Shown: piece after piece, positions 53,535 through 57,321 of the stretch
Layout: the number at the start of each line of letters is the position of its first letter
Position numbering within the stretch: the first letter of the stretch is position 1
Source of the DNA: a virus
Reading direction: 5' to 3' (one strand)
DNA length: 64,000 nt
IMG/VR virus record: IMGVR_UViG_3300017973_000001
Location: 1-64,000 of that record
Notes under the pieces: generated by a model
What the model was told of the DNA's origin: nothing
What the model saw: only the letters and a program-made list of their open reading frames with translations
Databases searched by the model: none
Made by a program: the position numbers and the translations under genes

Positions 53535-53909
53535 ATGTTGAAATTCAATCCATTCTCTAGCATTAGTAGTGTAGAAAAAGTAGGGATATGTTCTCTAACA
53601 ATTTGGTGGGGGCTTATATCGATCTTGCCGTTAGGGAAACTATTAAGTGAGCCATACTACACTCTATTAGCTGAGGTCAAAGACACTGGTTTTCTAGTAA
53701 TGATATTAGGTCTATTACTTCTGTATTCATTTTTAAATCATAAAAGAAAACTAGAAAAGTTCTGCTTACTATTTCTCACTTTTTACTGGTTTTATGTCGC
53801 CAAACTAGTAAATATCGAGGAAACATTTTTTATGCCTAGCACCATCTATCTGTTAATTGGTCTAGTAACAAGTTATTTATACGTCAAAGTGGGGGTGTTG
53901 GAGAAATGA
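53535..53909 (+). CDS. Multi-TM membrane protein of the lysis cassette
   Basis: About 4 hydrophobic segments; precedes holin-like genes. Confidence 0.6.
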   Translation: MLKFNPFSSISSVEKVGICSLTIWWGLISILPLGKLLSEPYYTLLAEVKDTGFLVMILGLLLLYSFLNHKRKLEKFCLLFLTFYWFYVAKLVNIEETFFMPSTIYLLIGLVTSYLYVKVGVLEK

Positions 53910-54253
53910 AACTAGATAGCACAGTTGTTAGCGCTCTATTTGGAGCTTCGGGAGTCGTTGTTACTAGCTTAGTAGGATTGATAGTAACAAAGGTCAATAA
54001 CAAGAAAGACGTTAAACTCTCAACAAGCGAGCGACTGTCTAACGATCAAACACAATTCTACGAAATGGTCATGAATGAAATTAAAGAAGTAAAAAAACGA
54101 GCTGACGAGGTTGAGCAAGAACTTGTACAGTGGCGTGAGGAAGCATTACAACTACGGATAGAAAACAAATCTCTTAAAAATAGGGTGGAAGAACTTGAAA
54201 AACTGATTACAAAATATCAAAAGGGAGAGATCAAAAATGAAACATATTCTTAA
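53906..54253 (+). CDS. TM-anchored coiled-coil protein (holin/XhlA-like accessory)
   Basis: N-terminal TM plus coiled coil; lysis context. Confidence 0.55.
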   Translation: MKLDSTVVSALFGASGVVVTSLVGLIVTKVNNKKDVKLSTSERLSNDQTQFYEMVMNEIKEVKKRADEVEQELVQWREEALQLRIENKSLKNRVEELEKLITKYQKGEIKNETYS

Positions 54254-54473
54254 AGAAGGTTTTTCAATCAATGAAGCTAAGTTTTCAGTGATTGTTCTAA
54301 TGACGTTAATTACGTTTGGTATAACGTTATACCAATTATTCAGTATAGGGCATATTACTAAGTCTTTACTGGACTTATTACAGTACCTATTGATGACTTT
54401 ATTTGGAGTGAATGTTGCAAATGGAGTTACTGGCGCTATATCAGATTTTAATAGCAATAAAGACGATAATTAA
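54237..54473 (+). CDS. Holin-like 2-TM protein
   Basis: Two TM segments; directly before the endolysin. Confidence 0.6.
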   Translation: MKHILKEGFSINEAKFSVIVLMTLITFGITLYQLFSIGHITKSLLDLLQYLLMTLFGVNVANGVTGAISDFNSNKDDN

Positions 54474-54518
54474 CTTTCTACCTATACTAACGTATAAGAT
54501 TAATAGGAGGGGATTAAT

Positions 54519-55262
54519 ATGACGTTTAATATGAAATATAACATCAACAAAGATTACATAGCTAAGGGTACTATGAAACGCCCTGGAAATGGGATTAAAG
54601 TACAATTTATCGTGGCTCATGACACTGGGAACCCTGGTTCAACTGCTCAAAATAACGTAGATTACTATAAACGTGTTGCTAATGAGTCTTATGCTTCAGC
54701 TCATATTTTCGTAGATGATAAGCAAATTCTTGAGTGTATCCCGGCTTTAACTGGTCCTACAGAAAGGGCTTATCACGTAATCTATGATGTTACTAAAGAT
54801 AATGAGTTATTTGGTGTTGACGCAAATGATGGGGCGATTGGAGTAGAGTTTTGCTATGGAAATGGCATTAATTTTACTGAAGCTTACAAGAAGTATGTAT
54901 GGGTTATTGCTTACATCTGCTTTAAGTTTAACATTGACCCACGTAAGAAAATTACTGGCCATTTCATCTTGGACCCGGCTCGTAAAACAGACCCGGTAGG
55001 GGGGCTGAAATTTGGTGGAAAGACTTTCCCACAATTTTTAGCTGATGTAGTTACTGAGTACAATAACTGTATCATTCCGGATCAACAAGTAAAGCCAATA
55101 CCTCAACCAACTGGTGTAACTTATAAAATTCAAAAAGATGATACATTTTGGGGAATAGCTACACGTTTACATATGAATGTAAATGACTTAATGAAGTTAA
55201 ACCCAGGTGTTGATCCTAAAAAGTTATCAGAAGGTATGGAGATTATCATTGGAAAAAAGTAG
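54519..55262 (+). CDS. Endolysin: Amidase_2 plus LysM
   Basis: VAHDTGNP, SAHIFVD, IGVEFC, GHFILDPARKTDP; LysM TYKIQKDDTFWGIA. Confidence 0.93.
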   Translation: MTFNMKYNINKDYIAKGTMKRPGNGIKVQFIVAHDTGNPGSTAQNNVDYYKRVANESYASAHIFVDDKQILECIPALTGPTERAYHVIYDVTKDNELFGVDANDGAIGVEFCYGNGINFTEAYKKYVWVIAYICFKFNIDPRKKITGHFILDPARKTDPVGGLKFGGKTFPQFLADVVTEYNNCIIPDQQVKPIPQPTGVTYKIQKDDTFWGIATRLHMNVNDLMKLNPGVDPKKLSEGMEIIIGKK

Positions 55263-55510
55263 AGGAATATATTAGGCCAACTGAAGCAAGTTCGCCTTTT
55301 ATAGTAAAAGAAGTACCGTACCCAGGAGACTTGAGAAAAGGCTCTAGAGGGGAGGGTGTTAAGTTACTTCAGCAGTACTTAGGAGCTGAACCGGATGGTA
55401 TATTTGGACCTAAGACTGAGAAGTTGCTTATTACCTACAAGAAAAGGGAAAGAATGAAGGACGTTAGTGGAGTTCTTAATTTCATGACCTGGTACAAGCT
55501 TGTTAAATAA
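55259..55510 (+). CDS. Start-less -1-frame extension of the endolysin encoding PG_binding_1 (83 codons)
   Basis: YPGDLRKGSRGEGVKLLQQYLGAEPDGIFGPKTE...SGVLNFMTW; entered via A AAA AAG at 55253-55259. Confidence 0.75.
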   Translation, partial: VEEYIRPTEASSPFIVKEVPYPGDLRKGSRGEGVKLLQQYLGAEPDGIFGPKTEKLLITYKKRERMKDVSGVLNFMTWYKLVK

Positions 55511-55511
55511 T

Positions 55512-55540
55512 AAATACCCACCTTAATCGGTGGGTATTTT
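55512..55540. terminator. Bidirectional terminator
   Basis: AAATACCCACC...GGTGGGTATTT, located after the extension stop codon. Confidence 0.75.
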
Positions 55541-55780
55541 AAAATCTTCTAGAACTGTTCTAACCACAGATATGTCATAACCTAGATGTGGCTCATAAGA
55601 TATTACATACGTATGTTGGTTTTTAAACCTAAGAAAAGTTTTTTTACGTCCTATCCTATGGATAACCTCAGAATTGTTTACTTCATATAGAATACGGTTA
55701 ATACACTGTATCCTATCCTCAATAATATTAACTCTTTGGTTATACCTCATAATCGCATGATCGCCTATCCAAAGTTGTTC
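55523..55780 (-). CDS. RelE/BECR (DUF4258-like) domain, probably expressed as a +1 frameshift extension of the S1 protein
   Basis: EQLWIGDHAIMRYNQRV...YVI...VVRTVL; the motif begins upstream of the first ATG (55750). Confidence 0.55.
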   Translation of the reverse strand, partial: EQLWIGDHAIMRYNQRVNIIEDRIQCINRILYEVNNSEVIHRIGRKKTFLRFKNQHTYVISYEPHLGYDISVVRTVLEDFKIPTD

Positions 55781-56663
55781 AAAGACACTCCTTTGATTGT
55801 TTTTCTATTTCTTTAACAAATAGCATGGAAATGTCCGGGTTAAATACTTTTTGAGCTTCTACAATACTACGCATAGTCCTAACAAGGCCATGTTGTTGTA
55901 CACTGCTCGCTAAAAGGTCTATTGCTTCATCACTTCTTAATTCAATATCTGCAAATTCTTTAATAAATCCGATTACATCTAAAAAGTCTTTTGTTTCTTT
56001 TAATTTCCCAGTATCAGAAGGTGCTATATCTAAAGGTGCAAGGTCAATTTTATTTATATTTTTTCTTTTTGAGTTATCGATACCGATTGTGCTAAGTTCC
56101 ATTTCATTTCGATTATTAATCTTATGGAAACTAGCTTTGATTAGATCGCCTTCCTCAAAGTATTCATGAATATCAGCTATATATGCGTCCTTAATACGTG
56201 ATACATGGACTAATCCTTGATATTTACCATCTAACGTTTTACATACTGCTCCAACATTAGTGAGTACTTTTACAACTTTTAAATCCAATAATTGTCCGTA
56301 GTAGAAAGGGGGCTTGTCAAAAGGTTTACTGTTGGTATCTTCTGAAGATTTATCTTTCAATGACTTGTTTTCTGTACTATAAACGACTTCTCTTTCATCA
56401 ACTTGATTATCTAGTTCGTTATCTAGTGGTGTATCAGTAGAATCATCATCTTTATACAAAAGTTCTTTGACGTTTAAGTCTTTATATATTCTGTAATAGT
56501 AGTAATTTACGTTTGCATACTGCATGTCATATTTAGTACATAGCCCACGGATGAAGTCAACACTAGTCATTTTATTTGTACCTTCAACCAGTGATATTAA
56601 ATAATCGTGAATTTCTTTTTTTAATTCTTCTTTTACTTTTTGTGAAAGCCTATTAGTTGCCAT
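55779..56663 (-). CDS. S1 RNA-binding domain protein
   Basis: GQLLDLKVVKV...GLVHVSRIKDAYIADIHEYFEEGD...ELS; probable ATG 56663 after AAGGAG. Confidence 0.8.
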   Translation of the reverse strand: MATNRLSQKVKEELKKEIHDYLISLVEGTNKMTSVDFIRGLCTKYDMQYANVNYYYYRIYKDLNVKELLYKDDDSTDTPLDNELDNQVDEREVVYSTENKSLKDKSSEDTNSKPFDKPPFYYGQLLDLKVVKVLTNVGAVCKTLDGKYQGLVHVSRIKDAYIADIHEYFEEGDLIKASFHKINNRNEMELSTIGIDNSKRKNINKIDLAPLDIAPSDTGKLKETKDFLDVIGFIKEFADIELRSDEAIDLLASSVQQHGLVRTMRSIVEAQKVFNPDISMLFVKEIEKQSKECL

Positions 56664-56726: not shown

Positions 56727-56945
56727 CTATAAGCCCTTTTTCATTGATTTTCGGCCATCATTAAACAACTCAAGTTGTTCATTGATCTGTTTGCCGGCCT
56801 CATCCCATGCTGTTTTATAAACGGCAATATGATTTTCGCTTTCTTCAACTTCCACGCTAATTCCGGCATGGAATTGAATTGACTCATAGTTAGGGAGAGA
56901 TTTCTTATAAGTTACCGATACGTTTATGTTGTTTACTTTAGCCAT
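56727..56945 (-). CDS. Conserved phage hypothetical protein
   Basis: Probable start MAKV at 56945; NYESIQF motif. Confidence 0.6.
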   Translation of the reverse strand: MAKVNNINVSVTYKKSLPNYESIQFHAGISVEVEESENHIAVYKTAWDEAGKQINEQLELFNDGRKSMKKGL

Positions 56946-57321
56946 GTTGTTCTTCCTCCAAGCAGTTATCACAAATATCAAATATATTAGTAGATTCTTC
57001 GCCACAATCGGGACAGAAAGTAATTGGGTAACTTTCAAAAATTGAGCATGAGATTCCTTCTTTAGTAAGAAGACCGTTTCCGGAAAAACTAGCTAATACC
57101 TTTTTTGAGTCGTTTGTATAAAAGGGTTTGCCAGTAGTGAACCAGTTTTTAAACTGCTCTACGCTCAAAAACTCGTTCTCGAAAAAGCCATAGAGCAATC
57201 CATTTTCCTCAAACTGAATAAGGTGGGGTAGACCTCTAGAGTAGTCTACCTTTTTTACCTTACCCCATTTCCCACTAAATTTAATAGAACAAGAGGGTAG
57301 AATAAATACCTTATTACTCAT
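56938..57321 (-). CDS. Hypothetical protein with C-terminal zinc finger
   Basis: CPDCG...CDNC. Confidence 0.6.
   Translation of the reverse strand: MSNKVFILPSCSIKFSGKWGKVKKVDYSRGLPHLIQFEENGLLYGFFENEFLSVEQFKNWFTTGKPFYTNDSKKVLASFSGNGLLTKEGISCSIFESYPITFCPDCGEESTNIFDICDNCLEEEQHG

Follow-up and report, generated by a model that had tools for sequence, protein, structure and literature searches.

Why is the last domain of a phage endolysin encoded in a reading frame that the gene itself does not enter: is the domain added to some enzyme molecules by a -1 ribosomal frameshift, or has it been cut off by the loss of one base? The locus lies in a stretch of 64,000 nucleotides (bases 1-64000, here called the window) of a 109,430-bp IMG/VR virus, which has direct terminal repeats, is scored complete and comes from a peat metagenome. 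The G+C content of the phage genome is 35%. Bacillus phage EZ-2018a is among the nearest cultured phages, all of them distant (40% major capsid identity), and the Brevibacillus phages Jenst and SecTim467 show 35% major capsid identity; the EZ-2018a group and the Jenst/SecTim467 group both belong to Jenstvirus. Since these nearest cultured phages infect Bacillus or Brevibacillus, the host is probably a member of the Bacillales. To look for close relatives, IMG/VR was searched with five queries (the lysin, its ParM-like and S1-like neighbours, the major capsid protein and P0003, which is one of the closest fused lysin homologs, P0003-P0005), and none exceeded 57% identity. DNA and protein searches of a phage collection similarly returned distant matches only.

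An endolysin divided between two frames

The gene and its surroundings comprise the following features.

54505-54512, plus strand: ribosome-binding site AGGAGGGG, located 6 nt ahead of the endolysin ATG, read from the sequence
54519-55262, plus strand: endolysin ORF in frame 0, 247 aa, the predicted short isoform (Pfam, PHROGs; all invariant family residues kept)
55259-55510, plus strand: -1 extension of 83 codons plus TAA (55508-55510), a linker followed by PG_binding_1 (Pfam, AlphaFold)
55331-55333, plus strand: TTG, the sole start codon ahead of PG_binding_1 in the -1 frame, with AGGAG 2 nt upstream
55512-55539, either strand: hairpin of 11 bp between convergent genes, the first terminator-like site after the lysin start

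According to Pfam, the frame-0 product carries Amidase_2 at residues 27-159 (about 54597-54995) and LysM at residues 202-244 (about 55122-55250), and its ORF ends GGA AAA AAG TAG. The third domain, PG_binding_1, is encoded in the -1 frame only, at about 55349-55501 (29.4 bits, profile positions 2-57 of 57). PHROGs assigns the frame-0 piece and the -1 piece alike to endolysin families. Domain order, catalytic residues and placement in what looks like a lysis cassette are those of an Amidase_2-LysM-PG_binding_1 endolysin (CwlA/XlyA-like). Joined to the short form, the extension gives a predicted long isoform of 330 aa, which reads ...IIIGKK-VEEY... and has VEEYIRPTEASSPFIVK as its junction-side peptide.

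The other members of the apparent cassette are three small hydrophobic ORFs of 124, 115 and 78 aa (window 53535-54473), situated directly 5' of the lysin and probably holin or lysis accessory genes. In the 115-aa ORF, which matches the PHROG 'hol-like chemotaxis', a hydrophobic stretch at the N terminus precedes a coiled coil.

An earlier note on this DNA, made from the letters alone, had described the -1 frame as open for 83 codons, with a clear PG_binding_1 domain, no usable start and a terminator only behind it; each of these points is borne out. There is no stop in the 83 codons at 35% G+C. The only start is TTG 55331, which lies 69 nt past the TAG and whose spacing of 2 nt from AGGAG is poor. 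The hairpin at 55512-55539, likely a bidirectional terminator, is the sole terminator-like structure, and it follows the -1 ORF.

The domain itself is well preserved. In the PG_binding_1 alignment, all eight of the eight invariant positions are kept. The PG_binding_1 part has 0.57 times the identity of the amidase part, where intact homolog pairs of similar distance have a median of 0.59. An AlphaFold model of the extension has pLDDT above 90 for residues 21-83 and aligns structurally, at about 1 Å, with the PG-binding domains of SleC, phiKZ gp144 and SleB. The second (last) DGxxG motif deviates, reading SGVLN. The stops, lost residues and excess divergence of a pseudogenised domain were thus not found downstream of the break, and the domain was clearly functional for most of the lineage's history. 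Such absence of decay is also expected after a recent break, and it does not separate a recent break from ongoing translation.

Signal elements at the frame break and elsewhere in the genome

The frame break is surrounded by the elements listed here, together with a second site of the same kind in the phage genome.

55238-55241, plus strand: internal Shine-Dalgarno (SD)-like GGAG, 11 nt 5' of the heptamer
55253-55259, plus strand: A_AAA_AAG, the slippery heptamer, in a register that allows shifting; the genome has 12 copies in register
55260-55262, plus strand: frame-0 stop TAG, directly abutting the heptamer, read from the sequence
55268-55303, plus strand: stem-loop UAUA..AGGC.AACU / AGUU.GCCU..UAUA, starting 8 nt after the heptamer
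101237-101243 of G000 (L006:3238-3244), outside the window: putative -1 site of the tail assembly chaperone, CTA AAA AAG TCA ATG TAA

The ORF end, heptamer, GGAG and stem-loop at the lysin site had all been named in the earlier note and are real, and the dnaX/IS-type elements that it listed are not only all present but together exceed what chance would give. The heptamer has the X_XXY_YYZ form of dnaX/IS911-type sites in the correct register of the upstream ORF. Candidates for the stimulators of such sites (an SD-like motif some 10-14 nt before the heptamer, an RNA structure some 5-9 nt behind it, or both) are found in silico, and the -1 extension is a meaningful one that has no efficient start of its own. 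The stem-loop has a minimum free energy of -12.1 kcal/mol (z = -2.9 against dinucleotide shuffles), and 3.5% of the genome's coding windows of 51 nt fold at or below this value. GGAG or GAGG occurs 9-14 nt upstream of 3.2% of coding positions in the genome. An SD-like motif, under a slightly looser definition than in the preceding count, and a hairpin of such strength occur together at 0.15% of coding positions (21 of 14,218).

Synonymous recodings of EEYIRPTEASSPFIVKE gave a mean folding energy of -4.7 kcal/mol (sd 2.5), and only 0.5% of them fold as well as the native sequence. Thus, codon choice rather than the peptide makes the hairpin, which points to choice for RNA structure. These tests of the flanks are post hoc, the features having been picked beforehand, and were discounted for that, but they still speak for a selected signal by a factor of ten or more. 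On the modest side, the SD-like motif is just 4 nt long, and the G+C-rich core of the hairpin begins at 55274, 14 nt after the heptamer, with only a weak A-U stem beginning at 8 nt.

The same heptamer recurs in this genome. Of the 12 copies of A_AAA_AAG that stand in register in genes, ten have a -1 frame that closes within 2-16 codons, and the two copies with both a nearby frame-0 stop and a long -1 ORF are those of the lysin and of the tail-chaperone ORF. The latter (G000 100794-101252, 152 aa) stands between a major-tail-like gene and a tape measure gene of 2471 aa, which is the canonical tail-chaperone location and that of the G/GT type, and its -1 frame is open for 111 codons. The corresponding sites are GGA TTA AAA AAG TCC ATG TAA in Jenst and GGC TTA AAA AAG TCA CTA TAA in EZ-2018a; the heptamer is kept in both despite synonymous changes in adjacent codons. 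In both phages, the -1 frame also keeps the same peptide (...W..IFF.L.HYCN...) upstream of any annotated start. This pattern indicates that the lineage very probably uses A_AAA_AAG for -1 frameshifting, and therefore the lysin mRNA should give some long form, whatever its origin. The chaperone site has no significant hairpin (z -0.4).

In Jenst, the upstream chaperone ORF carries the label 'DNA polymerase III subunit gamma/tau', apparently in error, and the annotated start of the downstream chaperone ORF cuts off conserved sequence. One further heptamer in the window, 65 nt into a gene at 56938-57321 on the minus strand, is in register and is followed by a fold of -13.8 kcal/mol. Its -1 frame closes after 4 codons, and it may only truncate a fraction of the product.

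In-register A_AAA_AAG occurs 12 times against 13.6 expected from synonymous shuffles, and heptamer avoidance as a sign of harm was accordingly rejected. Since the bare heptamer is not depleted, efficient frameshifting would need stimulators.

Frame-break junctions, defined as a downstream frame overlapping an upstream stop without a nearby start that has a ribosome-binding site, number three among 164 crude ORFs: they are at the lysin, at the S1-like gene beside it and at the tail chaperone. Each of them resembles a recoding signal. The S1-like gene (301 aa) lies on the minus strand, tail-to-tail with the lysin across the shared hairpin at 55512-55539, and ends AAGGAG TGT CTT TGA A at 55779-55796, that is, an SD sequence, 3 nt and then CUU UGA as in prfB. 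The neighbouring +1 signal of which the earlier note had spoken was thus seen. The +1 frame is open for 85 codons and has no start with a ribosome-binding site, and the motif AAGGAG-N3-CTT-TGA is a candidate RF2-like +1 signal.

The reading to which we give most weight, with a probability of about 0.55, is that A6 is real and that a functional -1 frameshift yields lysins of 247 and 330 aa. Most ribosomes would stop at TAG 55260, releasing the Amidase_2-LysM lysin of 247 aa. On A_AAA_AAG, a fraction would move back by one base, through tandem slippage of two tRNA-Lys or through slippage in the P site with the stop in the A site. Three things would promote the slip: the GGAG 11 nt upstream, by pairing with 16S rRNA; the hairpin 8 nt downstream; and the abutting stop, where termination would be slow. 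The shifted ribosomes would translate the linker and PG_binding_1, and their product of 330 aa would have the three-domain architecture that relatives encode in one frame. No tRNA gene able to alter Lys decoding was found in a search of the phage genome. We infer slippage at the lysin site, its efficiency and a differing wall affinity of the two forms.

Relatives and competing explanations

Other than itself, the closest match to the 247-aa protein reaches no more than 55-62% identity. The 20 or so closest LysM-carrying proteins are single ORFs of 319-403 aa in the order Amidase_2, LysM, PG_binding_1, and the three closest fused homologs have 328-331 aa, compared with 330 aa for the predicted long form. 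On alignment, the break in the window sits in the linker between LysM and PG_binding_1. In addition, 80 metagenome and 80 genome loci were scanned with domain profiles in all forward frames; at every locus having PG_binding_1, it lies in the same stop-to-stop frame as the amidase, and only the window is split. The in-frame fused domain was found in about 20 database proteins, 3 to 4 metagenome loci and 7 genome loci.

A search of the protein collection for stand-alone relatives of the 83-aa piece gave only the window's own 59-aa ORF and fragments from tiny contigs, and no other split copy of the lysin was found in that collection. The earlier note had proposed comparing homologous genes for conservation of the heptamer and stop, and such conservation was not found: about 30 homologs with PG_binding_1 are all fused in frame. 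The heptamer and frame arrangement is therefore not conserved in the relatives, a comparison of low power when close relatives are lacking. Thus, the fused state is ancestral and the split is a singleton in all data reached. A lysin parallel in Jenst was rejected: the ORF right after its lysin encodes a membrane protein, not a binding domain. This 99-aa ORF (L171:2784-3083) directly follows the lysin in the same frame past the stop, and the gene orders differ in that the membrane ORF of Jenst follows the lysin and those of the window precede it.

The strongest competitor of the frameshift, and a serious one to which we give perhaps a third of the weight, is a genuine, fairly recent deletion that turned A7 into A6 in the linker joining LysM and PG_binding_1, at its Lys-Lys codons. 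The 247-aa lysin would then work as it is, the downstream domain would be an undecayed remnant, and any long form would be incidental at most, arising from slippage that is not selected. The relatives, with one continuous ORF as expected if the window's gene is truncated, speak for this, as does the singleton state of the split. Removal of one base from an ancestral GGA AAA AAA GTA G would create the heptamer, its register and the adjacent stop in one step, and therefore those three carry little weight as signs of a signal. The A6 run (55253-55258) is the longest A/T homopolymer in the lysin gene, and among frameshift mutations, indels in homopolymers are the most common. At the spot of the break, the linkers of homologs are rich in Lys; after LysM, homolog L029 reads GAG AAA AAA GTA (EKKV), and the GKKV of the window's -1 reading fits an ancestral Lys-Lys-Val there.

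Further, in-register A_AAA_AAA is about 3.5-fold depleted in the whole genome (9 observed against 31.6 expected from synonymous codon shuffles). This suggests strong selection against runs of A7 or longer in this phage; an ancestral A7 may therefore have been unstable, which favours a deletion. The deviating last motif of the domain points the same way.

Against a deletion, the SD-like motif and the hairpin, with their joint frequency of 0.15%, would have to be a coincidence, as would a hairpin more stable than 99.5% of synonymous recodings. PG_binding_1 would be a remnant without decay, and the genome has no other broken gene that lacks a recoding-like signal. Moreover, a lineage that very probably already frameshifts on the identical heptamer would make some long form anyway. 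The claim of the earlier note that lysins of 247 and about 330 aa are co-produced accordingly stands in part: the signal elements make it the likelier reading, while the singleton state and the fused relatives tell against it.

That the true genome has A7 and a single ORF of 330 aa, with A6 reflecting a sequencing or assembly error, is very improbable. The frame does break inside a homopolymer, and the depth is only about 11. A search of sequencing runs for this DNA gave one DNA run and no RNA run; the assembly probably derives from that run, and its reads then offer no independent evidence. However, the Logan assembly of that run spans the whole stretch with A6, 0 substitutions and 0 indels at a word depth of about 11, so that two different assemblies agree on A6, and the 109-kb genome is without a scatter of broken genes. 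A consensus of short reads seldom confuses A6 with A7 (for this run, the platform is not recorded). The alternative of A7, which the earlier note had raised, is thus answered by a second assembly of the run, at the level of contigs of one DNA run, where rare variants are invisible, and probably from the same reads.

Least probable of all, by a little, is production of PG_binding_1 as a separate protein of 59 aa, a free wall-binding subunit started at TTG 55331 or by reinitiation after the TAG: the TTG ORF (predicted product beginning MRKGSRG) holds the whole Pfam domain with AGGAG just upstream, and other endolysins are known to have free binding-domain subunits that arise from internal starts (PMC6116005), but the SD spacing is 2 nt, the codon is TTG, the start lies well past the stop and the product would lack the conserved PYPG segment that precedes the domain. 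A reassigned or read-through TAG was rejected, as frame 0 closes 14 codons later, short of the domain, and other genes ending in TAG have normal starts with ribosome-binding sites behind them. Transcriptional slippage was also rejected, A6 being too short for bacterial polymerases as far as these are understood (PMC5009743).

A wider proposal, which we regard as tentative and rather doubtful, is that this phage appends optional C-terminal domains by recoding, with a -1 shift in the chaperone, a -1 shift in the endolysin and an RF2-type +1 shift in the convergent neighbour, and that the ratio of short to long lysin is a tuned property of lysis. Such a ratio, if real, might balance, for example, a diffusible against a wall-anchored enzyme. 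The wall-binding domains of modular endolysins decide range, affinity and diffusion, and adding a binding domain to a set proportion of the molecules by frameshifting would, if confirmed, be a new way of setting an isoform ratio.

Our literature search found no paper on ribosomal frameshifting in an endolysin, and the available part of the recoding review makes no mention of endolysins (PMC5009743). If the frameshift is genuine, no endolysin before this one would have had its domain content set by the ribosome shifting frame, phage genes with -1 recoding would gain a new class, and annotators would be warned against discarding such downstream domains as remnants or errors. If there has only been a deletion, the gene encodes an ordinary truncated lysin; even so, it would offer a natural test case for the yield of long form from a bare A_AAA_AAG-stop in a Bacillus-type host.

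Comparison with known systems

The elements of the dnaX site, namely the heptamer, an internal SD-like sequence and a downstream stem-loop, are described in two articles (PMC5389563, PMC5009743). The lysin site has in common with dnaX tau/gamma of E. coli the heptamer A_AAA_AAG, an SD-like sequence about 10-11 nt upstream and a stem-loop a few nucleotides downstream. The outcomes differ: in dnaX, the shift leads to a stop and a shorter product, whereas in the lysin it would avoid the abutting stop and add a domain. In addition, the predicted lysin hairpin is weaker than that of dnaX, with its G+C core further away.

With OrfAB of IS911 and the IS3 family, the lysin shares A_AAA_AAG near the end of the upstream ORF and a -1 shift that would fuse the product to a downstream ORF without an efficient start. 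In IS911, Rettberg et al. are said to have reported in 1999 that an upstream SD-like sequence and a downstream structure act as stimulators. The IS911 product is a transposase and its stimulator a three-way junction, whereas the product in the window is a lysin.

Endolysin isoforms as such are established, in the form of products of in-frame internal starts (LysA of Ms6; multimeric lysins), and both products can be needed for properly timed lysis (PMC6116005; PMC3111421). In these lysins, as proposed for the window, one gene gives two products of different domain content. Their isoforms differ at the N terminus through initiation, whereas those of the window would differ at the C terminus through recoding.

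A different parallel is provided by the G-run of herpesvirus thymidine kinase, in which a homopolymer indel is partly offset by low-level ribosomal slippage, as described in the recoding review (PMC5009743). At the lysin locus, a 'savior' indel of this kind would correspond to a hybrid of the frameshift and deletion explanations. Unlike in thymidine kinase, no selective reason is known for an indel in the lysin, and the flanking stimulators suggest more than incidental slippage.

In the lambda tail chaperone G/GT, a -1 shift close to the gene's 3' end yields a short protein and one extended at its C terminus, their ratio being fixed, again according to that review (PMC5009743). The lysin would similarly give a short and a C-terminally extended product, and the window phage's own chaperone site has the identical heptamer. 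The two sites differ in that the chaperone site is conserved across phages and has no significant hairpin, whereas the lysin site is a singleton with a hairpin. Overall, the lysin site is a candidate for a dnaX/IS911-like mechanism whose outcome, a C-terminal extension, would resemble that of IS911 OrfAB and phage G/GT.
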